Shown here piece after piece: positions 2,768-63,869 of a stretch of 64,000 nucleotides of DNA (the stretch's first letter is position 1; every line of letters starts with the position of its first letter). Below the pieces are notes generated by a model. The model was not told the origin of the DNA. It saw only the letters and a program-made list of their open reading frames with translations, and ran no database searches. This DNA comes from Eledone cirrhosa. Taxonomy: Eukaryota. The stretch covers positions 28,520,001 to 28,584,000 of the forward strand of contig OZ024764.1 in NCBI GenBank assembly GCA_964016885.1, written 5' to 3'. The position numbers and the translations under genes are program-made.

Positions 2768-3192
2768 AACACCGCCCCTTTCAATGTACAGTTATGTTGG
2801 TCCCACAACACCCAGGCCGAAACAAATGAGATCGTGTAGGTGTCACGACAAAAAACACACAGTCCACGCTGTAATGTGGCCGTGTAGGCAACACGGTAAA
2901 AACCTCCCAGCCCCACACTGTAAATGTGGTTGGTGTTAGGAAGGGCATCCAGCTGTAGAAAACCCGCCAGACAGTCCACGCTGTAATGTGGCCGTGTAGG
3001 CAACACGGTAAAAACCTCCCAGCCCCACACTGTAAATGTGGTTGGTGTTAGGAAGGGCATCCAACTGTAGAAAACCCGCCAGACAGTCCTATGCGAGCAA
3101 GACAACCACTCTTGCCTCAAGTGGGAAAACCCCCGTCCAAACCCATGCAAGCGTGGAACACGGACGCTAAACCTGATGATGATGATGATGAT
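2768..3192 (+). mobile_element. RTE LINE 3'UTR fragment (same family as 44400-46255) with two 112-bp units and a (gat)n tail
   Basis: Matches the reverse complement of 44415-44820. Confidence 0.8.
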
Positions 3193-21283: not shown

Positions 21284-22560
21284 ATCATCATCATCATTTT
21301 ACGTCCGCTTTTCCCTGCTTGCAAAGGTGGGATGGGAACTGATTCTGGCTTGATTTCTACAGCTGGATGCCCTTCCTAACATCAACCTCATTTACAGTGT
21401 GGGCTGGGTGCTTTTTTGCCGTGGCACCTCCACGACCACTTTACAGTGTGGGCTGGGTGCTTTTTTACCGTGGCACCTACATGACCACTTTACAGTGTGG
21501 GCTGGGTGCTTTTTTGCTGTGGCACCTACATGACCACTTTACAGTGTGGGCTGGGTGCTTTTTTGCCATGGCACCTACATGACCACTTTACAGTATGGGT
21601 TGGGTGCTTTTTTGCCGTGGCACCTCCACGCCCACTTTAGAGTGTGGGCTGGGTGCTTTTTTGCCGTGGCACCTCCAAGACCACTTTACAGTGTGGGCTG
21701 GGTATTTTTTTGCCGTGGCACCTACATGACCACTTTACAGTGTGGGCTAGGTGGTTTTTTGCCGTGGCACCTACATGACCACTTTACAGTGTGGGCTGGG
21801 TGTTTTTTTGCCGTGGCACCTACATGACCACTTTACAGTGTGGGCTGGGTGCTTTTTTGCCGTGGCACCTACATGACCACTTTACAGTGTGGGCTGGGTG
21901 CTTTTTTGCCGTGGAACCTACATGACCACTTTACAGTGTGGGCTGGGTGCTTTTTTGCCGTGGCACCTCCACGACCACTTTACAGTGTGGACTGGGTGCT
22001 TTTTTGCCGTGGCACCTCCACGACCACTTTACAGTGTGGGCTGGGTGCTTTTTTGCCGTGGCACCTCCACGACCACTTTACAGTGTGGGCTGGGTGCTTT
22101 TTTGCCGTGGCACCTTCATGACCACTTTACAGTGTGGGCTGGGTGCTTTTTTGCCGTGGCACCTCCACGACCACTTTACAGTGTGGGCTGGGTGCTTTTT
22201 TGCCGTGGCACCTCCACGACCACATTACAGTGAGGGCTGGGTGCTTTTTTGCCGTGGCACCTACATGACCATTTTACAGTGTGGGCTGGGTGCTTTTTTG
22301 CCGTGGAACCTCCACGACCACTTTACTGTGTGGGCTGGGTGCTTTTTTGCCGTGGCACCTTCATGACCACTTTACAGTGTGGGCTGGGTGCTTTTTTGCC
22401 GTGGAACCTACACGACCACTTTACAGTGTGGGCTGGGTGCTTTTTTGCCGTGGCACCTCCACGACCACTTTGCAGTGGAATGATAGGGACCCCGGTCCCT
22501 ATCATCTCATTTCTACAGCTGAGTAAACTGGAGCAATGTGAAATAAAGTGTCTTGTTCAA
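21284..22560 (-). mobile_element. SINE family A with its internal 49-bp unit expanded to about 22 copies
   Basis: SINE tail at 21284-21390, array of tttacagtgtgggctgggtgcttttttgccgtggcacctccacgaccac at 21391-22470, then SINE body. Confidence 0.9.
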
Positions 22561-23662
22561 TATGTAAACAGATATAGACAAGAGAGGTGTAAACATACAT
22601 AAATACATTACAGACAACAGAAGAAAGGGGCTGGTGAAATGCTATAGCCATGAGTGTTACGTCCCTTTAGGGTTGACTAGCTACATAGCCTATTCGTATA
22701 AATAACATGACAAATATGCTTTAACCCTTTAGCATTTACATTACTCTATATATACTATTGTATTTTCATGGTAAAGGCTTTACCTCACATAATATCTCCC
22801 ATAACATTTACATTACTCTATATATACTATTGTATTTTCACAGTAAAGGCTTTACCTCATAATATCTCACATACCATTTACATTACTCTATATTTACTAT
22901 TGTATTTTCATGGTAAAGGCTTTACCTCACATAATATCTCACATAACATTTACATTACTCTATATATACTATTGTATTTTCATGGTAAAGGCTTTATCTC
23001 ACATAATATCTCACATAACATTTACATTACTCTATATTTACTATTGTATTTTCATGGTAAAGGCTTTACCTCACATAATATCTCACATAACATTTACATT
23101 ACTCTATATATACTATTGTATTGTCACAGTAAAGGCTTTATCTCACATAATATCTCACATAACATTTACATTACTCTATATATACTATTGTATTTTCACA
23201 GTAAAGGCTTTACCTCATAATATCTCACATACCATTTACATTACTCTATATATACTATTGTATTTTCTCAGTAAAGGCTTTACCTTACATAATATCTCAC
23301 ATACCATTTACATTACTCTATATATACTATTGTATTTTCACAGTAAAGGCTTTACCTCACATAATATCTCACATAACATTTACATTACTCTATATATACT
23401 ATTGTATTTTCATGGTAAAGGCTTTACCTCACATAATATCTCACATAACATCTCGTATACGAGAGACGTGTGTTGACGTGTGTGAACAAGCTCGGCTACC
23501 GAGTCGGATTTACTTACTCAAAAAGTGAGTTTTGATTAATTTTTTTATACTGTAATATACGTTAACCCCTTGCCTTGGTCGTCAAACTTTGAGTTTATTT
23601 ATTTTCGCCCCTTTTTGGGGCGAATTTTCCAGTTAAAAATTTATTACGGCAAACTAATAGAA

Positions 23663-25405
23663 ATGGACGGAATTTTCACATCTCATCCTAACGTGAAAGC
23701 CACGCCCCCTAAGAAAGGTGATACAGAGAAGCTAGAAGCACAAGGCTCTAAGTCTTCCCTCCTCACTTCTGCAAAAGAAACATGGAACACGGAATTAAAA
23801 GAAAAATTTGTAGAAATGGGTGAAAACCCAGAAAGTCACATAAACGCAGACAAAAACATCAACGACAATAACAGCAATAGTCACAACACCAACCAAGGAA
23901 AAAATAACGATAACACCAAACAAAGTGAACCCACTACTGGTACCTCCTTTGCACAGGCGGTCCGGAAAACACAAACCTGCAAGCAACTGGACATTACAAC
24001 TCTGAGAGAAAAGATGAAGGAAGCGAAACAGTATGTAACTTTCAAAGAAGGAGGAGACTTCACAATCACCTCCCCACAAGAAATCAAAAGAGACACGACG
24101 CTAAGAACGATATCTTTCAGAACAATTTCCAACATAACAAGGAAACCAACTCAATTATCCCAAAAAGAGATTGAGCTGGTCCTAAAAAATGTGTGGAATG
24201 ATATATCGTTCATACAAAAAGGGCCACTCTATGGGAATATAACGGTCCTAATGAAGGATCAATTGACGGCCAGGAAATACTCTGTGGCACCAATTGTTTC
24301 CAAGATATATACATTTTTCCCCACATATTTAGGGAAAAGAACGCAGAAGATAAGGGTCTCCGGAATCCGGCCAAATGCATGCATTTCCTGGGTACTAACA
24401 GGATTTTTAGAAGACGAGGACGGAATCCTCTCAGTAGGAGAAGTCACCACAGACGTTTTCGGCGGTTTGAGCGTGGAGGTTCTGGTCCAAATGAGACCAG
24501 AACGAATCGCTAGAATACCACAGAGGGTGTCCCTCGATGGAGAAACATTTATATATATTTCAGCCGAGGGTAGGAGGCCCATATGTTACTACTGTTCAAG
24601 CAGGGGTCATCTAAGGGCTGCTTGTCCTCAATTGACAAAAAAAAAGGCTCTTTTGCCTACACCCCACACACCACCACCGCCACCACCACCACCACCACCA
24701 CCTCCACCACCACCACCACAACAACAACAAAAACAACAGGGAAAAATAACACAAGACACGGCCCCACCCAAAACAACTCCCAAAACACACACAAATACAA
24801 CAAAACCCCAAAATACACCACTACCCGACAGCACGGACGAGGACCCAGCGGAAACGGCACCTAGTGACGAAGAGGGGGAACCCTTCCAACCTGTAAAAAG
24901 GAAAAAAAGAAAGCACCACTCGAACATAAACGAAACAAACACACAACCACCAACAAAAACAAAACAAACAGAACAAACAAAATCCGCCCCACCCCAAAAC
25001 ATAACACATACAACAAAACGTAAGCACACACAAGAACAACAAACAAACACAACACAAATAAAACAGTATACATACATTAACACAAATAACAAAGAACTAG
25101 TAAAAACAATACACAAAGACCCTTTGGTGGAAACTGAAGGGCAATTCTTTGCAAGCGCGGCCAACAAACCGCATTTAAAAATGATAAGACTCCCAATGGA
25201 CACCTATGCAAAACTAAGAGAGAACTTTCCTGAGGACGTGGGGAAAACATGTACTCGACCCTATAACCGCGTCCTCTTGAAACGTTTCCCCACCCACACC
25301 TCACCAAACACCCCCACTCCACCACAGAACAACACCCCACCAAACAACCCCTCCAATACGCCCATGGATATTGTGCAACCTGCTCCTCAGGAGCCGAACA
25401 GGTAG
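23663..25405 (+). CDS. Tx1-like ORF1p (gag-like nucleic-acid-binding protein), about 580 aa
   Basis: First ATG at 23663. CCHC knuckle CYYCSSRGHLRAAC, poly-Pro/Gln stretch, basic KRKKRK, and SFAQAV motif. Confidence 0.9.
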   Translation: MDGIFTSHPNVKATPPKKGDTEKLEAQGSKSSLLTSAKETWNTELKEKFVEMGENPESHINADKNINDNNSNSHNTNQGKNNDNTKQSEPTTGTSFAQAVRKTQTCKQLDITTLREKMKEAKQYVTFKEGGDFTITSPQEIKRDTTLRTISFRTISNITRKPTQLSQKEIELVLKNVWNDISFIQKGPLYGNITVLMKDQLTARKYSVAPIVSKIYTFFPTYLGKRTQKIRVSGIRPNACISWVLTGFLEDEDGILSVGEVTTDVFGGLSVEVLVQMRPERIARIPQRVSLDGETFIYISAEGRRPICYYCSSRGHLRAACPQLTKKKALLPTPHTPPPPPPPPPPPPPPPPQQQQKQQGKITQDTAPPKTTPKTHTNTTKPQNTPLPDSTDEDPAETAPSDEEGEPFQPVKRKKRKHHSNINETNTQPPTKTKQTEQTKSAPPQNITHTTKRKHTQEQQTNTTQIKQYTYINTNNKELVKTIHKDPLVETEGQFFASAANKPHLKMIRLPMDTYAKLRENFPEDVGKTCTRPYNRVLLKRFPTHTSPNTPTPPQNNTPPNNPSNTPMDIVQPAPQEPNR

Positions 25406-25426
25406 GTCCTTCCTCTTTTAACCAAC

Positions 25427-28400
25427 ATGGCTGATATAAGAGTTGGGTTTCTGAATGTACGTGGCCTGGGACTGTCTTGGAAACAAGGCAAACTTTTAAA
25501 CGATCTCAGGTCACATAGAATGGATGTAATGGCTATTTGCGAGTCCAGGATCAGCAGCGAGCACCAACTGGCGCCCCTCTTCGACGACTTTGAGATCTTC
25601 GCATCTCTCTGTCAACCGGGGGGTGGGGGTGGAGTTGTCGTTCTGCTGCGAAAACACCTGGGCCTCGCCATACAGAAGGTGCACCTGGACCCGGAGGGTC
25701 GACTGGTGGTTTTAGACGTCGGCAGTAGTGAAAGTGGAGCCCTTAGACTAATAGCTGTGTACGCCCCTTTTTGGGCAGCGCGGCCGGAATACTTCCAACG
25801 TCTGGAAACTTTTCTGGGAACGTCCCGCTCCTTGCTTTTAGTGGGGGACTGGAATGGTATCCTGGATGCACGTTGGGACTATGTAGGGGCATGTGCCAAT
25901 AGAGGGGGGTGTAAAAGCCTCAAAAGGTTAATCGGCCGATTTGACCTGGCCGATAGATATCGACTAGATTTTCCGACTGTACCACTATGGACGTGGACCA
26001 ATCGCAGTGGAACATCTAGGTCGTACCTAGATAGGGTCCTAGTTAGAGAGAACGATAGGGACACATTTAGCTGTCCAAAAATGTTCATGGTTGACTATTC
26101 GGATCACAAGTTAGTGACCTGCATAGCCAACCTTGATAGAACCCATAGACAGGGACCCGGTTACTGGAAGCTGAACTTGTCCTTACCGAGAAGCAAAGCT
26201 TACAGTAAACGGATTAGCACGTTAGTTAAGCAGAATTTGACAGGGGCAATTGTCAACAACAGGTGGTGGAGCTCTCTTAAGAGAGCAATTAGAATAGAAT
26301 CGATAGGTTTTAGTCAGGAATTAGCAAGGGATAGGAACAAGACGGAAAGGGAATTAGTAGATAGAGTAGAAGAGGCGATTAGGAGTGGCAATGTAGCCGG
26401 CGTGCTGGCATCAAGAATGGCCTTAGACCAGTTCTTTGAGGTGAAGCATGAAGGCTGCGTTGTCAGGAGTAAAATACGTGCTCTGGGTAATGAGGGAGCC
26501 AAAGCTGTAAGCTGGGCCCGAGTGATAGAGGCAAAAAGTGGGAACAAGTCCACGATTCGGTCTTTGAAGGACCAGGATGGGCGTGTGATCCTTGAACCTG
26601 GGCAGATGTGTGCGGCCTTTCAGCGGCACTTTGCACGACTGTTCGAGAGGGGCGGCGCGCCGGGTGAGACTATGGATTTCAATCCATACCTCGACGGTCT
26701 GCCGCGCCTCTCGGACGCGGAGGCGAAGTCCTGCGAAAGGACGATTTCAGCTGCTGAGATAGGGGCGGCGCTGAGCCAATGCGGCAAACGCAAATCCCCG
26801 GGTCTCGATGGTCTACCATACGAGCTATATGTAGCGATGCCGGACTTGTTCTCCGATATCCTCGAAGCGGTCTACTGCAACTGGCAGCAGAACGGGAGAA
26901 TTCCCAGTTCTGTGACCAAGGGCGTAGTTACGCTGGTGAGGAAGGATGAGAACAAGGGGGATGACATAAGTAACTTCAGGCCCATAACTCTGCTAAATAC
27001 AGAGTTAAAGATTTTGGCCAAGGTGTTAGCGAAGAGGTTGGCGCTTGTCGTTGGAAACCTGGTGGGAGAAGCGCAGACATGCGCAATCCCGTCCAGGTCC
27101 ATTCACGACAATCTCCACCTTATGCGATACATCATAGAGAGGGTAGGGAATGAACCCGGCTTTGGTGGGGCCCTGATCAACTTGGATCAATCTAAAGCTT
27201 TCGATAGGGTTGACCATCGTTACCTGGATGCGGTGCTCGCGGCGGCAGGCTTCGGACCCGTTTTCAGGGGTTGGATTGCTGCGATGCACAGCAGCAACGT
27301 CTGCTCAAGGGTCAAGGTGAACGGCCACCTCTCGGAGCCGTTCCAAATCATGCGATCCATCCGACAGGGATGCCCTCTCTCCTCCCTACTGTATGTGCTG
27401 GCTCTTGAGCCACTACTGCGGAAGTTGGAGCGGTTGCAGGGCATCCCTTTGGAACCGGGATTGCAGAAAGCGGCGTCGGCCTACGCCGATGACGTGACAG
27501 TAATGGTGTCGAAAACCTCGCAAATCGGTGAGATCGGCACCTTACTGGAGGAATATGAAAGGTTTACAGGAGCCAAGCTGAACCGGGACAAGTCCGTCGT
27601 TTGCAACTCGGAACATGGAGAGGCAAACCGATGCCCTCCAACGACGTCGTCGGACGCTGGACGGAGGGCCCGGTGAAGCTGCTTGGGGTCTGGTTCGGAC
27701 CAGACCTCCAGGTGGAGAAAAACTGGAACGAGGTAACGGCCAGGGTGTTTGCACTCACCCAGAAGTGGGCCCAGTGCAAACTATCCCTGAAAGGTCGAGC
27801 GGAGGTGGCGAATACTTATATAGCATCCGTCATCTACTACCGCTTGACCGTCGTGCCTTGCCCAGTGAAAAGACTCGCCAAAATGGAGTGCGCGCTGTTC
27901 CAATTTCTTTGGAACAAGCGGACCCCTTTGGTGAGGAGATCCATCTGCTGTCAACACCCTTCGAAAGGAGGGCTGGGGATGCCGTGGCTACAGATGCGTA
28001 AACACGCATTAAGGCTACGGCACCTCCAGGTATTCCTCACCGGTCAACCGGTGTGGGCCCCGTTTGTGAGGCGAGCCTTTCCCAGACTCGTCTCGCTCAC
28101 CGAGCTGCAATCCTGGGTCAAGCAAAGACCGAGAAAAGTGGGCGACTGGCACATTGAATGTGCCCAGGCGCTCACGGCCCTCTGGAAAGCGGACCCGGCA
28201 ATCAGTGGAGACTCCACCTCGACATTCTATAGAGGGTTGGTACGCAGCAGGTGCGACGATGCTCTCGGAGAAGCTCTAGGCATGGAGGAAGATGAACTGG
28301 CCAGTCTGTTCGGTAGGACGTTTGGCCCTGGACCGATGGACAACTTCCAAAAGTCCCTGGCTTGGCAGTGCTACCGAGGGGCTCTACCCGTTCGAGACAA

Positions 28401-28863
28401 GCTCCACAGACATGGGAGCCTGGGTAGAGATCCTTTGAATAAGATCTGTCCGAGATGCGTGCATGATGACGAAACCGTTGCGCACGCATTCGTACACTGC
28501 CCAGGCATTGCTGACCTGTGGGGCTATGTGGAACGACTACTGTCGAGGGTGGGACCAATCCGGTTGACCACCGAGTCCATTGTCACGATCAAACCGCCTC
28601 CCCCTTTCAAAAACGAAGGAGAGGCGGTTTTTCTCTGTGTGGTAGCCATGGCTAAAGAAGTTGTATGGTGGACGAGGCTGAAAGGGCTGAGGTCAGACAC
28701 CTTTCTCTCCGGCCAACAACTGGTCCCCTTTTTCAAATACCATTTTAAAAGAAGGATCAGAATGGAGAGAGAGGTGCTCTACCCCAGCAAGTTTTATGAA
28801 AGGTGGGTGAAAGTAGGGAGAATGGCCAGAGTGAATGGGTCTTCTCTCTATATCAGCCTGTAG
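25427..28863 (+). CDS. Tx1-like ORF2p (APE endonuclease, reverse transcriptase, C-terminal CCHC), about 1145 aa, single 1-nt frameshift near 27599
   Basis: APE motifs LNVRGL, VYAP, GDWN, YLDR, SDH. RT motifs KSPGLDGL, FRPITLLN, DQSKAFDRV, RQGCPLS, YADD. C-terminal CPRC..ETVAHAFVHC. Restoring one base gives KSVGLQLGTW. Confidence 0.92.
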
Positions 28864-30228
28864 GTGAAAGAAGAGGAAAAAGCGGAGACGAGGGAAGCAC
28901 CTACTCTTTGTGCTCCTGAGGAGAAGGGTTGCACATTTTTTCCGGGGTGTGTGCGACCCATGTTAATGCCCCTCCCTATTGAGGACTTCGTTTGTTGTTG
29001 TTATTTCATTGTTATATTTTTGTACTCGTTAATTATATGTAAACTTCCCCCCTTGTATCTGTCCCTACCTTTCGTGCCCTAGTGGCAAATAAAGAAACCA
29101 CTCTATATATACTATTGTATTTTCACAGTAAAGGCTTTACCTCACATAATATCTCACATAACATTTACATTACTCTATATATACTATTGTATTTTCATGG
29201 TAAAGGCTTTACCTCACATAATATCTCACATAACATTTACATTACTCTATATATACTATTGTATTGTCACAGTAAAGGCTTTACCTCACATAATACCTCA
29301 CATAACATTTACATTACTCTATATATACTATTGTATTTTCATGGTAAACACTATATATCACATAATTATCTCACATAATATCGAATCTACGAAATTTTGA
29401 TAGTGTTTATTTTGAGAACAATACCTTAACATCAGTATGAGTAACTGTTTACAGCCAATTTGAATAGAAAAAGGTGAGAGAATTCTGGCCGGATATGGCT
29501 GGTCTAAATGCTAAAGGGTTAACAGAGAGGTCATTTACTTTCCATACCCTTTTTCTCCAGATTAACCTCTCTCTCTGTCCCTCCAGATCTTATATTTAAC
29601 AGGGAGACTTATTACTATCCTTACCCTTTTTTTCAGATTGTCTTGTATCTCTGAATCTTTCTAAATCTTATAATTAACAGAGAGATCTTTTACTATCCAT
29701 ATCCCCTTTCTCCAACTTGTCTTGTATCTCTCAGTCCCTCTAGATCTTACTCCTATGTCACTAGTGTCTAGTCTATGTTGAGTGGTACATCCTTCTCTAG
29801 TCGTCTTCTTCTTTTCGTATCTTCGAAGCATGTGGTTATATGACAGTTTCCTATTTCTTTACACAGTCCTTTGCATTATTATTAAATTCTGTGAGATCTT
29901 TTAAGCTGCACTGGTTGGGTAGCAGAGGGCAAACAAGGCAGTGCTGTATCGTATGGTCTTCTAGTAAAGGACCTAATATTCCCAACCATCTGTCTATCCT
30001 GTTTTCTGATGAGAATAAAGTCAATCTAGTTTAAGTGTTTACCTGATTGGTGAAAGATCAAGTAACTAGATGGTTTTCTGTAAGTTAGTGTTGCAGTGTT
30101 AGTGCCACTATGTAAGGTTCATATCTACAGTCTATTAATATAGAGATGTAAAGTTTTCACTGTTGTATTTCTACTTTCTAAATATCTTAATGTTTATCCA
30201 CTATTTCAGAATGTCACAGTGTATTCTA

Positions 30229-30630
30229 TCATCATGATCATCATCATCATCATTTCATTTTACGTCCGCTTTTTCCCTGCTTGCAAGGGTGGGACGGGAA
30301 CTGATTCTGGCTTGATTTCTACAGCTGGATGCCCTTCCTAACACCAACCTCATTTACAGTGAGTGCTGGGTGCTTTTTTACCATGGCACCTCCACGACCA
30401 CTTTGCAGTGAGTGCTGGGTGCTTTTTTGCCGTGGCACCTCCACGACCACTTTGCAGTGGAATGATAGGGACCCCAGTTCGTATCATCTCATTTCTACAG
30501 CTGAATAAACTGGAGCAATGTGAAATAAATTGTCTTGCTCAAGGAAACAACACATCACCCGGTCTGAGAATTGAACTCACAACCTTTCGATTGCAAGGTC
30601 AATGCTCTAACCACTAAGCCATGTGTCTCC
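30229..30630 (-). mobile_element. SINE family A (two copies of the 49-bp unit)
   Basis: Matches the other copies. Confidence 0.9.
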
Positions 30631-31377: not shown

Positions 31378-32850
<1,473 letters not shown>

Positions 32851-34300: not shown

Positions 34301-35205
34301 TTGGTGTTAGGAAGGGCATCCAGCTGTAGAAAACACGCCAGACAGTCCACGCTGTAATGTGGCCGTGTAGGCAACACGGTAAAAACCTCCCAGCCCCACA
34401 CTGTAAATGTAGTTGGTGTTAGGAAGGGCATCCAGCTGTAGAAAACACGCCAGACAGTCCATGCTGTAATGTGGCCGTGTAGGCAACACGGTAAAAACCT
34501 CCCAGCCCCACACTGTAAATGTAGTTGGTGTTAGGAAGGGCATCCAGCTGTAGAAAACACGCCAGACAGTCCACGCTGTAATGTGGCCGTGTCGGCAACA
34601 CGGTAAAAACCTCCCAGCCCCACACTGTAAATGTAGTTGGTGTTAGGAAGGGCATCCAGCTGTAGAAAACACGCCAGACAGTCCACGCTGTAATGTGGCC
34701 GTGTAGGCAACACTGTAAATGTAGTTGGTGTTAGGAAGGGCATCCAGCTGTAGAAAACACGCCAGACAGTCCACGCTGTAATGTGGCCGTGTAGGCAACA
34801 CGGTAAAAACCTCCCAGCCCCACACTGTAAATGTGGTTGGTGTTAGGAAGGGCATCCAGCTGTAGAAAACACGCCAGACAGTCCACGCTGTAATGTGGCC
34901 GTGTAGGCAACACGGTAAAAACCTCCCAGCCCCACACTGTAAATGTGGTTGGTGTTAGGAAGGGCATCCAGCTGTAGAAAACACGCCAGACAGTCCACGC
35001 TGTAATGTGGCCGTGTAGGCAACACGGTAAAAACCTCCCAGCCCCACACTGTAAATGTAGTTGGTGTTAGGAAGGGCATCCAGCTGTAGAAAACACGCCA
35101 GACAGTCCTATGCGAGCAAGACAACCACTCTTGCCTCAAGTGGGAAAACCCCCCGTCCAAACCCATGCAAGCGTGGAACACGGACGTTAAACGATGATGA
35201 TGATG
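34301..35205 (+). repeat. RTE 3'UTR with a 112-bp unit expanded to about 7 copies
   Basis: ttggtgttaggaagggcatccagctgtagaaaacacgccagacagtcc... repeated, ending in the RTE tail cggacgttaaacgatgatgat. Confidence 0.88.
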
Positions 35206-36878: not shown

Positions 36879-37261
36879 TTACTGAGGACCTGTTTGGTTT
36901 TTATAGAGAATATTAGGAGGGAGGGGTGAAGTTGTTAGAAGAATAGTTGAGGGAGTGGTTTTTTGATAGCAGTGAGAATTTTTGGTGGCAGTGAGTAATT
37001 AGATTCCCATCTGTTGTTTTGACATTTTTATAGAATATATTATTGGTTATTTTTCTAAATCTATAGAAGGATTAGAGATAGTATAGATATGCGTGGTGTA
37101 TATATATATATATATATACACACTTTATCTACACCATATATGAAGATGTTAAAGGCTGATACAGCTAACCACCAGTGAACTGGAGCAATGAGAAAGCAAA
37201 GTGTTTTGTTCAATGGCACAACTCACCACCAGGTTCAAGGATCAAATTAACAATCTCACGA

Positions 37262-37712
37262 TTGTCTCCCTTGCTAACCTGATCACCTAGGTACCGGAAG
37301 CTTTCAACCACCTCTATAGATCCTACCTGCATTTGAAAAATGTGCCTACCACCGATACTATTAATTTTCCTTGAACATCTACTACATATGAGGTTTTCCT
37401 TTCCTGTTAGTTTGCCTGCTATCCCACTACAACTTTTGTGTACCCAAGATCTGCATTGTGTACATTCTATAGAGTTTATGCCAACTCCTTTTCTACATAT
37501 CGAACATGGGCAGCTAGTCTTAAACTCCTCTGTTATGGCTTGGAGAACTATAATGAATAAGAGTGGGCTGAGGACCAAACCCTGATGAACACCTACTTGG
37601 ATCTGGAATTCCTCACTAAACTCCATTCCTACTCTCACGTTACTGACAGGTCTTCTGTACATAGCTTGCACTGACCTCACAAGCCATTCCTCTACACCTA
37701 GTTTCCTTAGGG
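37262..37712 (-). mobile_element. RTE LINE RT fragment with Cys-rich insert
   Basis: LRKLGVEEWLVR..VGVHQG.VLSPLLF..CSICRKGVG..CTQCRSWVHKSC..CSRC..FRYLGD. Confidence 0.85.
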
Positions 37713-37879
37713 ACATGGACACATACAATAACATCCATGTGTGATTTCCCAAAAATCGAGGAACCCATGCATACTTACATTTTACGGATAATCTCCATGA
37801 CACCAATCTTGAAAAGATATTAAGTAAAACAAAAATTATTTTTTAGCAACAACATCTGACTGATAAAATGACATCTCAG

Positions 37880-44399: not shown

Positions 44400-46255
44400 C
44401 ATCATCATCATCATCGTTTAACGTCCGTGTTCCATGCTTGCATGGGTTTGGACGGGAGTTTTCCCACTTGAGGCAAGAGTGGTTGTCTTGCTCGCATAGG
44501 ACTGTCTGGCGGGTTTTCTACAGTTGGATGCCCTTCCTAACACCAACCACATTTACAGTGTGGGGCTGGGAGGTTTTTACCGTGTTGCCTACACGGCCAC
44601 ATTACAGCGTGGACTGTCTGGCAGGTTTTCTACAGCTGGATGCCCTTCCTAACACCAACCACATTTACAGTGTGGGACTGGGACGTTTTTACCGTGTTGC
44701 CTACACGGTCACATTACAGCGTGGACTGTGTGTTTTTTTTTCGTGACACCTACATGATCTCATTTGTTTCGGCCTGGATTTTGTGACACCAACATAACTT
44801 TACATTGAAAGGGGCGGTGTGGATGGGGTGGGGGTGGTGGGACGGGGGGTGTATTTTGTTAGAGATGCCTACTGACTGTAGTAGGTTTTACTTTGTATTT
44901 AGGTAACGCGGGTCTTCTCTGTTACTGAGTACCGCCAAAGGTCTCGGTCCAGTGACATTGTCTTGGAGAGGTGTAAGTGTGTGAGGTCGGAATTTATCAG
45001 CTCGTCCCAGGTTTTTCTGGGTCAGCCTACTCCGTGGCTACCATCTATCTTTATTGCCCTGCACTTTGTTATACAGCTGTCGTCTTTCATGCGCATCACG
45101 TGACCATACCAACGTAGCCTTCTCTCGAGTAAACAACATCTGATCCCTCTTATTTCTAATTTTTTCCTTAGTTCGTTTATGCTTTGCCGTTCGCATATAT
45201 TACTATTACACATCCAGCGGAGCATGCAAGCTTCGTTCCTCTCTAGTCTGCGTATATCCTCTGCACACAATGCCCAGGTCTCACTGCCATGCAACATTGC
45301 TGTTCGTATGCAGGCATCATACAACCTGCCTTTCACTTTTAGGGAGACCCCTTTAGCGGCTAATAGTGGTATAAGCTCTCTGAACTTTTTCCATCCAGTT
45401 CTGACTCTAGCTACTGTACTTTCGGAGCACCCTCCCCCACTGCTGATTTTGTCACCCAGGTAACAGAAGCTGTCCACTATTTCTATAGAACCCTCTGCGC
45501 AGTTGAAAGAGCTAGTATTTTGTGGGCACTTGCTGCTACTTATTGCACCAGAGCACCGGCCACATGTAAAATCTGTGTTCTTAGTTAGCTTACCTGTGAT
45601 CCCACTACATCTTTTATGCACCCATACTTTGCATTTGGGACATAAAATGGAGTTTCTACCTACGCCTTTCCTACACACTGAGCATGGCCATTTCCCGGAA
45701 GGGACCGGCGCCTTATTTTCTTTCCTACAAACTAGAACTTTAGTCTTAGCCATGTTAATTTTAAGGCCTTTTGATTCTAGGCCGTGCTTCCACGTTTGGA
45801 ATTTCTTCTCTAGCTCGGCCATTGATTCAGCTATGGGCGTTAGGTCATCTGCGTATAGGAGTTCCCATGGGCAGCCGGTCTTGAACTCCTCTGTTATAGC
45901 CTGAAGAGCAATAATGAATAGTAGGGGGCTAAGAACAGAGCCCTGATGGACACCAACTTTTACGCTAAACTCTTCACTATATTCGTTGTTAATTCTAACC
46001 TTGCTCACTGTTTCTTTATACATGGCTTGTATAGCTCTCACAAGCCATTCGTCAACACCTAGTTTTCTAAGAGCCCACCAGATAATGGAACGGGGGACTC
46101 TGTCGAAGGCTTTCTCCAAGTCGACAAAGGCTAAGTATATTACTTTTAGCTAGGTACTTCTCCTGTAGTTGTCGTACAATGAAGAGAGCGTCTGTGGTAC
46201 TTTTGCCTGACACAAACCCGAACTGCATTTCATCTAGATCGATTCTCTCTCTGTT
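44400..46255 (-). mobile_element. 5'-truncated RTE LINE: RT with PHD-like insert, long 3'UTR and (gat)n tail
   Basis: ORF 45022-46119 reads EKAFDRVP..VGVHQGSVLSPLLF..LLYADDL..CSVC..CPKCKVWVHKRC..CGRC..FCYLGD..RRLRWYGHVMR. Confidence 0.92.
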
Positions 46256-47702: not shown

Positions 47703-47914
47703 TTAACCCATTAGCATTTACATTACAATATTTACAATTATATTTTCACAGTAAAGGCTTTACCTCGAATAATTATCTCACATAATATTGAATCTATGAG
47801 GCTTGGCTATTATTCATTTTGTGAACAATACCTTAACATCAGTATGAGTAGCCGGTTACAGCCAGTTTCAACCGAAAGAGGTGAGAGAATTCTGGCCGGA
47901 TACAGCCGATTTAA
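47703..47914 (+). mobile_element. Short piggyBac-like MITE copy with a single repeat unit, right end truncated
   Basis: TTAA|CCCATTAGCATTTA, one unit, then the shared right subterminal region up to a TTAA. Confidence 0.7.
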
Positions 47915-49561
47915 CCCTTTAGCATTTACATTACTCTATATCTGCTATTGTATTTTCACAGTAAAGGCTTTACCTCACATAATACCTCACATAACATTTA
48001 CATTACTCTATATATACTATTGTATTTTCACAAATGCTTTACCTCACATAATATCTCACATAACATTTACATTACTCTATATATACTATTATATTTTCAC
48101 AGTAAAGGCTTTACCTCACATAATACCTCACATAACATTCACATTACTCTATATATACTATTGTATTTTCACAGTAAAGGCTTTACCTCACATAATATCT
48201 CACATAACATTTACATTACTCTATATATACTATTGTATTTTCACAGTAAAGGCTTTACCTCACATAATACCTCACATAACATTTACATTACTCTATATAT
48301 ACTATTGTATTTTCACAGTAAATGCTTTACCTCACATAATATCTCACATAACATTTACATTACTCTATATATACTATTATATTTTCACAGTAAAGGCTTT
48401 ACCTCACATAATACCTCACATAACATTCACATTACTCTATATATACTATTGTATTTTCACAGTAAAGGCTTTACTTCACATAATATCTCACATAGCATTT
48501 ACATTACTCTATATATACTATTGTATTTTCACAGTAAAGGCTTTACCTCACATAATACCTCACATAACATTTACATTACTCTATATCTACTATTGTATTT
48601 TCACAGTAAAGGCTTTACCTTACATAATATCTCACATAACATTTACATTACTCTATATATACTATTGTATTTTCACAGTAAAGGCTTTACCTCACATAAT
48701 ATCTCACATAACATTTACATTACTCTATATATACTATTATATTTTCACAGTAAAGGTTTTACCTCACATAATATCTCACATAACATTTACATTACTCTAT
48801 ATATACTATTGTATTTTCACAGTAAAGGCTTTACCTCACATAATATCTCACATAACATTTACATTACTCTATATATACTATTGTATTTTCACAGTAAAGG
48901 CTTTACCTCACATAATATCTCACATAACATTTACATTACTCTATATATACTATTGTATTTTCACAGTAAAGGCTTTACCTCACATAATATCTCACATAAC
49001 ATTTACATTACTCTATATATACTATTATATTTTCACAGTAAAGGCTTTACCTCACATAATATCTCACATAACATTTACATTACTCTATATATACTATTGT
49101 ATTTTCACAGTAAAGGCTTTACCTCACATAATATCTCACATAACATTTACATTACTCTATATATACTATTATATTTTCACAGTAAAGGCTTTACCTCACA
49201 TAATATCTCACATAACATTTACATTACTCTATATATACTATTGTATTTTCACAGTAAAGGCTTTACCTCACATAATATCTCACATAACATTTACATTACT
49301 CTATATATACTATTGTATTTTCACAGTAAAGGCTTTACCTCACATAATATCTCACATAACATTTACATTACTCTATATATACTATTATATTTTCACAGTA
49401 AAGGCTTTACCTCACATAATATCGAATCTACAAGCTTTTGATGTTATTTATTTTGAGAACAACACCTTAACATCAGTATCAAACCAGTTACAGCTGGTTT
49501 GAACTGGAAGAGGTGAGAAAATTCTGGCCGGATATGGCTGGTTTAAATGCTAAAGTGTTAA
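47911..49561 (+). mobile_element. piggyBac-like MITE with about 21 x 72-bp units
   Basis: TTAA|CCCTTTAGCATTTA ... TAAATGCTAAAGTG|TTAA. Confidence 0.88.
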
Positions 49562-50049: not shown

Positions 50050-51594
50050 TCAGACCGGGTGATGTGTTGTTCCTTGAGCAAGACACTTTATTTCACATTG
50101 CTCCAGTTTACTCAGCTGTAGAAATGAGATGATAGGGACTGGGGTCCCTATCATTCCACTGTAAAGTGGTCGTGGAGGTGCCACGGCTAAAAAGCACCCA
50201 GCCCACACTGTAAAGTGGTCGTGGAGGTGCCACGGCAAAAAAGCACCCAGCACTCACTGTAAAGTGGTCGTGGAGGTGCCACGGCAAAAAAGCACCCAGC
50301 ACTCACTGTAAAGTGGTCGTGGAGGTGCCACGGCAAAAAAGCACCCAGCACTCACTGTAAAGTGGTCGTGGAGGTGCCACGGCAAAAAAGCACCCAGCCC
50401 ACACTGTAAAGTGGTCGTGGAGGTGCCACGGCAAAAAAGCACCCAGCACTCACTGTAAAGTGGTCGTGGAGGTGCCACGGCAAAAAAGCACCCAGCACTC
50501 ACTGTAAAGTGGTCGTGGAGGTGCCACGGCAAAAAAGCACCCAGCCCACACTGTAAAGTGGTCGTGGAGGTGCCACGGCTAAAAAGCACCCAGCCCACAC
50601 TGTAAAGTGGTCGTGGAGGTGCCACGGCAAAAAAGCACCCAGCACTCACTGTAAAGTGGTCGTGGAGGTGCCACGGCAAAAAAGCACCCAGCACTCACTG
50701 TAAAGTGGTCGTGGAGGTGCCACGGCAAAAAAGCACCCAGCCCACACTGTAAAGTGGTCGTGGAGGTGCCACGGCAAAAAAGCACCCAGCACTCACTGTA
50801 AAGTGGTCGTGGAGGTGCCACGGCAAAAAAGCACCCAGCACTCACTGTAAAGTGGTCGTGGAGGTGCCACGGCAAAAAAGCACCCAGCCCACACTGTAAA
50901 GTGGTCGTGGAGGTGCCACGGCTAAAAAGCACCCAGCCCACACTGTAAAGTGGTCGTGGAGGTGCCACGGCAAAAAAGCACCCAGCCCACACTGGAAAGT
51001 GGTCGTGGAGGTGCCACGGCAAAAAAGCACCCAGCCCACACTGTAAAGTGGTCGTGGAGGTGCCACGGCAAAAAAGCACCCAGCCCACACTGTAAAGTGG
51101 TCGTGGAGGTGCCACGGCAAAAAGGCACCCAGCCCACACTGTAAAGTGGACGTGGAGGTGCCACGGCAAAAAAGCACCCAGCCCACACTGTAAAGTGGTC
51201 GTGGAGGTGCCACGGCAAAAAAGCACCCAGCCCACACTGTAAAGTGGTCGTGGAGGTGCCACGGCAAAAAAGCACCCAGCCCACACTGTAAAGTGGTCGT
51301 GGAGGTGCCACGGCAAAAAAGCACCCAGCCCACACTGTAAAGTGGTCGTGGAGGTGCCACGGCAAAAAAGCACCCAGCCCACACTGTAAAGTGGTCGTGG
51401 AGGTGCCACGGTAAGAAAGCACCCAGCACTCACTGTAAAGTGGTCGTGGAGGTGCCACGGCAAAAAAGCACCCAGCACTCACTGTAAATGAGGTTGGTGT
51501 TAGGAAGGGCATCCAGCTGTAGAAATCAAGCCAGTATCAGTTCCCGTCCCACCCTTGCAAGCAGGGAAAAGTGGACGTAAAATGATGATGATGA
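50047..51594 (+). mobile_element. SINE family A with the 49-bp unit expanded to about 27 copies
   Basis: SINE body at 50047-50156, array at 50157-51487, tail to 51594. Confidence 0.9.
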
Positions 51595-58499: not shown

Positions 58500-59075
58500 T
58501 TAACTCTTTAGCATTTACATTTCTCTATATATACTTTTGTATTTTCACAGTAAAAGCTTTACCTCACATAATATTACACATAACATTTACATTACTCTAT
58601 ATATACTATTGTATTTTCACAGTAAAGGCTTTACCTCACATAATATCTCACATAATATTTACATTACTCTATATATACTATTATATTTTCACAGTAAAGG
58701 CTTTACCTCACATAATATCTCACATAACATTTACATTACTCTATATATACTATTGTATTTTCACAGTAAAGGCTTTACCTCACATAATATCTCACATAAC
58801 ATTTACATTACTCTATATATACTATTGTATTGTCACAATAAAGGCTTTACCTCACATAATATCCCACATAACATTTACATTACTCTATATATACTATTGT
58901 ATTTTCATGGTAAAGACTTTACCTCACATAATATCAAATCTATAAGATTTTGTTATCATTTATTCTGAGAACAATACCTTAACATCAGTATGAGTGACTG
59001 GTTACAGCCACTTTGAACAGAAAGAGGTGAGAGAATTCTGGCTGGATACAGCCGGTTTAAATGCTAAAAGGTTAA
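58500..59075 (+). mobile_element. piggyBac-like MITE with about 6 x 72-bp units
   Basis: TTAA|CTCTTTAGCATTTA ... TAAATGCTAAAAGG|TTAA. Confidence 0.85.
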
Positions 59076-62198: not shown

Positions 62199-63435
62199 TT
62201 AACCCTTTAGCATTTACATTACTCTATATATACTATTGTATTTTCACAGTAAAGGCTTTACCTCACATAATATCCCACATAACATTTACATTACTCTATA
62301 TATACTATTGTATTTTCACAGTAAAGGCTTTACCTCACATAATATCTCACATAACATTTACATTACTCTATATATACTATTGTATTGTCACAGTAAAGGC
62401 TTTACCTCACATAATATCTCACATAACATTTACATTACTCTATATATACTATTGTATTTTCACAGTAAAGGCTTTACCTCACATAATATCTCACATAACA
62501 TTTACATTACTCTATATATACTATTGTATTGTCACAGTAAAGGCTTTACCTCACATAATATCTCACATAACATTTACATTACTCTATATATACTATTGTA
62601 TTTTCACAGTAAAGGCTTTACCTCACATAATATCTCACATAACATTTACATTACTCTATATATACTATTGTATTTTCACAGTAAAGGCTTTACCTCACAT
62701 AATATCTCACATAACATTTACATTACTCTATATATACTATTGTATTGTCACAGTAAAGGCTTTACCTCACATAATATCTCACATAACATTTACATTACTC
62801 TATATATACTATTGTATTTTCACAGTAAAGGCTTTACCTCACATAATATCTCACATAACATTTACATTACTCTATATATACTATTGTATTGTCACAGTAA
62901 AGGCTTTACCTTACATAATATCTCACATAACATTTACATTACTCTATATATACTATTGTATATTCACAGTAAAGGCTTTACCTCACATAATATCTCACAT
63001 AACATTTACATTACTCTATATATACTATTGTATTTTCACAGTAAAGGCTTTACCTCACATAATATCTCACATAACATTTACATTACTCTATATATACTAT
63101 TGTATTGTCACAGTAAAGGCTTTACCTTACATAATATCTCACATAACATTTACATTACTCTATATATACTATTGTATTGTCACAGTAAAGGCTTTACCTC
63201 ACATAATATCTCACATAACATTTACATTACTCTATATATACACTGTTGTATTTTTGTGGTAAAGGCTTTATCTCATATTATTCTCATATAATATTGAACC
63301 TATGCGATTTTGATATTAGTTATTTTGAGAACAATACCTTAACATCAGTATTAGCAGCCAGTTGCAGCTGGTTTGAACAGAAAGAGGTGAGAGAATACTG
63401 GCTGGATTCGGCCAGTTTAAATGCTAAAGAGTTGA
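62199..63435 (+). mobile_element. piggyBac-like MITE with about 15 x 72-bp units
   Basis: TTAA|CCCTTTAGCATTTA ... TAAATGCTAAAGAG|TTGA. Confidence 0.85.
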
Positions 63436-63680: not shown

Positions 63681-63869
63681 GTAAGTAGTATAGTATATGT
63701 TTTCTATGTAATTTCAGTATTAACCCTTTAGCATTACTTTATCTTGTGAACGTCACCTGGGCATTACTGTCAGCAGAGATTTGCATTGGACAAAGCACAT
63801 CTCTAAAATTGTCAAGGCCGAGGGTGTTGTAGCATCACTCAGCAAGACAAAGGTCTTGCTGAGTGATGC

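Follow-up and report, generated by a model that had tools for sequence, protein, structure and literature searches.

A near-intact L1/Tx1-type LINE nested in the 72-bp tandem array of a TTAA-bounded MITE of the octopod Eledone cirrhosa: probable insertion at one position of the repeat unit

A stretch of 64,000 nucleotides from the genome of the octopod Eledone cirrhosa (assembly GCA_964016885.1, contig OZ024764.1, positions 28,520,001 to 28,584,000 of the forward strand; hereafter the window, numbered from its first letter) contains a full-length long interspersed nuclear element (LINE), both ends of which lie within an array of 72-bp repeats that fills the interior of a miniature inverted-repeat transposable element (MITE). 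The first-pass annotation, made from the letters of the window alone, had described a nearly intact LINE with two open reading frames (ORFs) at 23452-29099 inside this array, and its coordinates and ORFs proved to be correct. Equally accurate was its account of the ends of the host MITE as perfect and TTAA-bounded: TTAA followed by the terminal inverted repeat (TIR) CCCTTTAGCATTTA at 22721-22738 recurs inverted at 29505-29522, with 0 mismatches at both ends. The locus is laid out as follows, with untranslated regions abbreviated as UTR and the apurinic/apyrimidinic-type endonuclease as APE.

22721..22724, no strand: TTAA target site at the left end of the host MITE
22725..22738, plus strand: left 14-bp TIR, 0 mismatches; starts with CCC and shares its last bases with the first unit
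22733..23451, plus strand: left part of the array of 72-bp units, 10.0 units, two of them 70 bp long
23451..23464, no strand: perfect 14-bp palindrome, sitting at the 5' junction of the LINE
23452..29099, plus strand: L1/Tx1-type LINE, full-length, 5,648 bp
23452..23662, plus strand: 5' UTR
23663..25405, plus strand: ORF1, 580 amino acids
25372..25413, plus strand: end of ORF1 and spacer, complementary to 28893-28935 in the 3' UTR (81% over 43 bp)
25427..28863, plus strand: ORF2, in two frames; APE endonuclease, reverse transcriptase and zinc finger
28864..29099, plus strand: 3' UTR, ending in AATAAAGAAACC, without poly(A)
29100..29378, plus strand: array to the right of the LINE, with 3.9 units; it picks up the unit after a gap of 7 bp
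29382..29504, plus strand: unique 3' tail of the host MITE, 78-85% alike among five copies
29505..29518, minus strand: right 14-bp TIR
29519..29522, no strand: right TTAA target site

The LINE stands out from the array by its composition (GC content of 0.49 versus 0.27). Its ORF1 encodes a single CCHC knuckle (amino acids 308-321; 18.4 bits, under the Pfam cut-off of 20.8), preceded by a region with similarity to clusters of the RRM/CCHC and ZCCHC3-like kinds (0.90-0.92 for the atlas look-alikes CCHC, RRM and ZCCHC3); the tail of the protein is rich in Pro and Thr, and folding without an alignment gave a mean predicted local distance difference test score (pLDDT) of 35.5. ORF2, about 1,145 amino acids in length, comprises the Pfam domains Exo_endo_phos, RVT_1 and zf-RVT, and the catalytic motifs of both the APE and the reverse transcriptase are in place (YADD at amino acid 686). 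It is interrupted by one 1-bp frameshift near 27598. Four of 18 listed public sequencing runs that contain the LINE (X1, X5, X8 and X16; no RNA run is among the 18) were compared with the element and 30 bp of flank on each side, and other copies carry one more base at this position (19 X1 contigs, 6 X5 contigs, 64 X8 contigs and 55 of 264 X16 reads); the frameshift is private to the window copy or a read error. A second 1-bp loss relative to other copies occurs in a short run at 28968. A tally of synonymous to non-synonymous changes (8:11 in ORF1 and 2:11 in ORF2, with about 28% synonymous expected) comes from 32 coding rows among 40 that were picked by support, mix families and stand beside 3,523 further rows, and we draw nothing from it.

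At its terminus the LINE reads aataaagaaacc, and poly(A) is absent, as had been noted from the letters. The 5' UTR is structured (folding z = -3.2 over 23440-23665 relative to shuffles); the 3' UTR folds no better than its shuffles (z -0.4), the target DNA is not notable either (z -1.6), and a search of Rfam over 22700-29550 returned 0 matches to E 1, and hence no known ribozyme. The last part of the 3' UTR (29030-29099) is common to many more elements than the LINE family itself, which points to related LINEs or to a short interspersed element (SINE): the X1 depth at 29047 is 105,174, about 50 times that of ORF1.

By its two ORFs and by an ORF2 composed of APE, reverse transcriptase and C-terminal zinc finger, the element is a retrotransposon of the L1 group (L1/Tx1), devoid of long terminal repeats. 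Its closest named proteins come from Argonauta hians (64% and 62% identity) and Octopus sinensis (43%), and the best structural match of ORF2 in the PDB is human L1 ORF2p (8sxt; E 1.7e-42, amino acids 5-723, 149 bits; R2 scores 82 bits). A tree of 59 reverse transcriptase segments, namely that of the window and 58 hand-picked from several hundred hits, unites the LINE with Argonauta rows (99/99) and then with unnamed proteins of 1,145-1,158 amino acids (99/96); the enclosing animal group is weak (85/81) and separate from plant L1 elements and the mosquito outgroup. Because this set includes no named Tx1 and no vertebrate L1, the tree cannot settle membership in the Tx1 clade, and searches of proteins, representatives and clusters recovered no named Tx1 reference among the relatives. 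An RRM/CCHC type of ORF1 has been linked with Tx1 (PMC5203782), a type that the CCHC knuckle of the window ORF1 and its CCHC, RRM and ZCCHC3 look-alikes fit; the literature searched yielded no report of a link between ZCCHC3 and Tx1. Judged by domain order, type of ORF1 and tree, with no named Tx1 in the comparison, the LINE is likely to belong to the Tx1 clade.

The host MITE is a member of a family that amounts to 4,826 bp, or 8.3% of the non-LINE window. The first-pass annotation had counted four copies without a LINE; all four are present, each with some defect at its ends.

47703..47914, plus strand: LINE-free copy with one diverged unit, without right TIR, continuing into the TTAA of the next copy
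47911..49561, plus strand: LINE-free copy, 20.9 units, TIRs mismatched
58500..59075, plus strand: LINE-free copy, 5.9 units, TIRs mismatched
62199..63435, plus strand: LINE-free copy, 15.1 units, right end degenerate, with TTGA

The motif of TTAA plus TIR end has 10 matches in the window, compared with a mean of 0.01 in shuffled sequence, and none of 100 shuffles reached 10. TTAA is found at both TIR-bearing ends in the host copy and in two of the four others, with differing outer flanks. The CCCTTTAGCATTTA TIR begins with CCC at both ends, and a TIR starting with CCC is a signature of piggyBac transposons. A Kolobok origin of the MITE was considered and rejected, since Kolobok ends read AG/RR (PMC6004289). 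At 47703-49561, the one-unit MITE without right TIR abuts the 21-unit copy at an internal TTAA of its own tail, so that one copy has probably inserted into another; a TTAA plus TIR start at 63720-63737 is followed by unrelated sequence and is either what remains of a copy or the start of another family that has the same ends. Across the five MITE copies (22733-63295), units are 93-98% alike between arrays, as against 78-85% (about 82%) for the unique tails, and three separate arrays have one and the same consensus unit, from which that of the host array departs by 2 bases. The arrays at separate loci thus appear from their letters to be homogenised, for which the ordinary account would be gene conversion between arrays that lie near each other.

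At the junctions of LINE and array, the left side ends with cataacat and the right side resumes at actctat, exactly as first described, and seven nucleotides of the unit (TTACATT) are skipped. Empty sites in which the seven letters stand between the positions corresponding to 23451 and 29100 are present in X1, X5, X8 and X16. The skip itself had been recognized in the first-pass annotation; its further statement that a skip in a tandem array is indistinguishable from a 65-bp duplication is partly wrong. When the 65 bp on the left of the LINE are compared with the 65 bp on its right, two adjacent bases disagree, and this difference matches a standing variant of the unit (6 of 49 units). The two stretches would therefore derive from two different units, which favors a 7-bp deletion, and we rejected the 65-bp duplication as the default reading on this ground. 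Over the same span, neighboring units are identical in 4 of 41 pairs and show exactly two differences in 12. Gene conversion could blur this evidence. Target deletions do occur with the Tx1-mobilised SINEU-2, according to PMC4494074.

The sequencing runs speak to the size of the LINE family and to its junctions in other copies. In X1, a 279-letter ORF1 contig with 0 differences from the window has a depth of 2,009, and the seven other listed X1 contigs, which are diverged relatives, have depths of 6-29; the LINE belongs to a young family of many copies, roughly 70-330, a range to be taken with the proviso that summed depths do not equal copy number. In line with this, albeit open to bias from the polymerase chain reaction, 37,083 X16 reads among 12.5 million records start at an SphI site in ORF1 (24378). 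X5 assembled both junctions independently and in the register of the window: one contig (23422-24024; 4 other letters, depth 10.2) spans the 5' junction, and another (28785-29121; 2 other letters, 1 gap, depth 12.2) the 3' junction. The depths of the inner LINE contigs of this run (7.5-11) are the same as those of the junction contigs, and over the 2,649 letters of five near-identical contigs the window LINE differs from X5 by 0.6%. The ratio of X5 to X1 depth stays at or below 0.008 in 22 of 30 bins (0.0020 in the MITE flank, 0.0023 in the 3' tail, median 0.0026 in ORF1) and is higher only in the most conserved ORF2 bins. Judged from these ratios, X5 is probably a thin sample (single-copy depth about 0.03-0.15) of a similar genome. 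If so, the probability of meeting a unique junction twice would be about 0.001-0.01; since both junctions were nevertheless assembled, they are likely to be common to many copies. The last base of the X5 3' contig directly precedes the position at which the units vary most (29122; T in 40 and G in 9 of 49 units), and a branch of the assembly graph would be expected there if two or more unit variants follow the LINE end. The label of X5 may not match the source of the window DNA, and we therefore do not use this run as cross-species proof. X8 contains three contigs from a sister family with fixed differences at 23500, 23505 and 23514, and the distances from these to the contig ends (78, 83 and 92) all point to 23422; at least one of the contigs thus appears to keep the 5' junction, reaching 30 bp into the flank. 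This family differs from the window LINE by about 4.5% as estimated by word share and lacks the alleles of the window's 5' UTR. Related loci were found in none of the metagenome, genome or viral contig collections, and two bacterial matches to the 20-base tail pattern were dismissed as chance.

We suggest that these data are probably best explained by repeated, site-specific insertion of the LINE at one position of the 72-bp unit, accompanied by a 7-bp deletion of the target. A single nested copy would on its own be weak evidence for this, because the MITE family occupies 8.3% of the non-LINE window; the idea that the LINE targets the unit, already voiced in the first-pass annotation, gains indirect support from the many near-identical copies, from the X5 junctions in register and from the 5' junction apparently kept in X8. 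From the 3' junction we infer that the APE domain of ORF2 would nick the bottom strand at 5'-AGAGT/AATG-3', a T/A step like the TTTT/AA of L1. The freed 3'-OH would then prime reverse transcription of the LINE RNA, yielding a DNA copy without poly(A), and a cut of the top strand 7 bp upstream would remove TTACATT. The endonuclease would, on this proposal, choose the target, and an abundant, dispensable array would offer a harmless landing site. If the targeting is real, intact 3' ends of the LINE should mostly continue into ACTCTATAT at one offset.

Several observations weigh against this proposal. It draws its support from the four compared runs rather than from a direct count of flanks, and the coverage of X5 is an estimate from depth ratios; as three diverged contigs of that run also reach depths of 6-11, its junction contigs could represent one or two loci. 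The X8 argument rests on one column and holds for at least one of the three contigs, not for all. No junction-spanning X1 contig was present among the best 24 of 120,008 pieces, and 24 loose ends stand beside 8,592 further ones, among which other flanks may exist unseen. A group of 119 X16 reads from one start joins 29097 to LINE-like sequence (28344) and not to the unit; these reads may represent a related family, because the end of the 3' UTR occurs in far more elements, as the X1 depth at 29047 attests, and the fragments of the X16 library require an SphI site, which is absent from the unit. A 65-bp duplication of such age that has acquired two changes is not rare by count (P ~0.18). The hairpin loop of the ORF2 endonuclease is L1-sized (9 residues between its anchors), not of the 11 residues found in Tx1L, and any specificity would therefore have to come from the sequence of the loop or from elsewhere. 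Finally, shared junctions are also expected if a composite of MITE and LINE was amplified as a block.

This last scenario, in which one ancestral insertion created a composite that was afterwards multiplied whole, through a piggyBac transposase or segmental duplication, so that the junctions are inherited, is in our view unlikely. It would account for the shared X5 and X8 junctions and for the perfect TIRs and TTAA sites of the LINE-bearing copy, which the other four copies lack; the window is moreover rich in tandem repeats and has a C2H2 zinc-finger ORF, and recently active piggyBac elements (6 families, 474 insertions) are reported for O. vulgaris (PMC13282606). However, the tails of the MITE copies are 78-85% alike, that of the host included, so that the host family is old and the LINE came late, whereas the LINE is only 0.6% different from the X5 contigs. 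Passive carriage would tend to erode the ORFs, yet those of the window are near-intact while the sister family in X8, about 4.5% diverged, appears to keep the junction. The higher X1 depth at 28883 than at 23500 (8,657 and 3,730, both sums) suggests 5'-truncated copies; it was copies of this kind that, in the account of Kojima, settled the hitchhiking rival for SINEU-3 (PMC4494074). No transposase ORF was recognized among the 16 window ORFs of at least 150 amino acids. The claim of the first-pass annotation that a transposase could move the entire 6.8-kb composite accordingly found no support: next to the divergent tails and the lack of a transposase, the composite was not seen at a second locus between new TTAA sites, with the flanks of other copies covered to 30 bp.

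That the LINE favors T/A steps of AT-rich DNA only loosely, as L1 does, and landed by chance in an abundant repeat, with junctions elsewhere that trace back to the same or a few loci, strikes us as improbable. The share of the window taken up by the MITE, the L1-like nick and loop, the different 3' flank of the X16 read group and the unmeasured X5 coverage are all compatible with it. The parallel X5 depth ratios for LINE, tail and MITE speak against it, as they indicate thin coverage at which a unique junction would rarely be assembled on both sides, and so do the X8 copies that appear to reach 30 bp into matching flank; these copies lack the 5' UTR alleles of the window and are therefore not the window insertion. 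That the nesting is an artefact of assembly in a repeat-rich region, as the two 1-bp losses in short runs (27598 and 28968) might hint through read errors, is largely refuted by the independent assembly of both junctions in X5 and is hardly conceivable.

A more elaborate scenario departs from the complementary stretches that bracket ORF2. The predicted duplex between 25372-25413 and 28893-28935 has an energy of -73.0 kcal/mol, compared with a mean of -30.7 and a best value of -51.0 for 524 other windows of the LINE, and with a best value of -49.3 for 300 shuffles; with ORF2 flanked by such an inverted repeat, it is possible that the LINE RNA closes into a loop around it. LINE transcripts might run on into downstream units and loop via these stretches, and targeted reverse transcription might then copy units between old MITE copies, so that the retrotransposon would renew its own landing sites, with intact composites additionally carried by a piggyBac transposase. 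Such a self-feeding pair would account for the identity of the consensus unit across three separate arrays whose unique tails are only about 82% alike; we regard it as very improbable.

Site-specific insertion of the LINE, the explanation we favor, has close parallels. Tx1L lies in the internal repeats of Tx1D, with a 23-bp duplication. The residence of Tx1 in the non-autonomous piggyBac element Tx1D of Xenopus laevis, a parallel that the first-pass annotation had drawn, is documented (PMC4494074, PMC1950540, PMC6719617). In both systems an APE- and reverse transcriptase-encoding LINE resides within a non-autonomous piggyBac-type transposon, and the choice of target by Tx1L has been ascribed to its endonuclease. 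On features, not by sequence comparison, the window LINE is set apart from Tx1L by its octopod host, its AT-rich 72-bp unit, its likely 7-bp deletion in place of the duplication, and its loop of 9 instead of 11 residues. With human L1 ORF2p it shares the domain order, the length of the hairpin and, as predicted, the T/A nick; unlike the window LINE, human L1 is promiscuous in its choice of target, its copies end in poly(A), and its ORF1 has a coiled coil but no knuckle. In crocodilians, Tx1-Mar inserts into Mariner-N4_AMi and Tx1-9_AMi into a Harbinger element (PMC4494074), and these LINEs likewise prefer a fixed region of an abundant, old non-autonomous DNA transposon; hitchhiking had to be weighed against targeting in that study as well, and 5'-truncated copies served to test it. 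They are themselves old (85-87% identical to consensus) and have non-repetitive targets, whereas the window family is young and its tandem unit provides many sites per host. Kojima regards a Tx1 family as target-specific when more than 20% of its copies are flanked by one kind of sequence (PMC4494074). Since Tx1 elements aimed at DNA transposons are already known from Xenopus and crocodilians, the window LINE is not a new kind of system.

Among cephalopods, O. vulgaris is reported to have 36 piggyBac families and 13 L1-Tx1 families of recent activity, the latter with 421 insertions (PMC13282606), and the window element or a relative may be contained in the library of that study; targets and nesting are not discussed in its available text, and the word 'nested' has 0 matches in the accessible supplement. 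L1-Tx1 elements are named in molluscs, without targets in the portions available, in PMC8967140 and PMC11203168, and PMC9115989 gave no match for Tx1. We found no case in the literature of a cephalopod LINE aimed at a DNA transposon; Repbase and the Zenodo consensus library lay outside this search and may already contain the family. If the targeting is true, an invertebrate lineage would possess an APE-type LINE that is young, has probably been active recently and inserts at a defined target, and the habit of aiming at a non-autonomous TTAA transposon would have arisen or persisted outside the vertebrates. Its L1-sized hairpin loop and apparent T/A cut would make the element convenient for testing how an L1-like scaffold acquires specificity, and a near-intact family of many copies renders repeated insertion and hitchhiking countable in octopus assemblies.

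The remainder of the window holds further repeats. The C2H2 zinc-finger ORF (31378-32849; 452 amino acids) has an 84-bp period and 17.3 repeats. A different LINE, whose reverse transcriptase contains or is followed by a PHD-finger-like insert, has left fragments on the minus strand at 45022-46023 and 37210-37734, neither of them within the MITE. Dispersed tandem families with 49-bp and 112-bp units (21391-22477, 30353-30459, 50157-51488; 2859-3089, 34301-35108, 44499-44729) complete the picture, and one dispersed tandem array lies just upstream of the host MITE.

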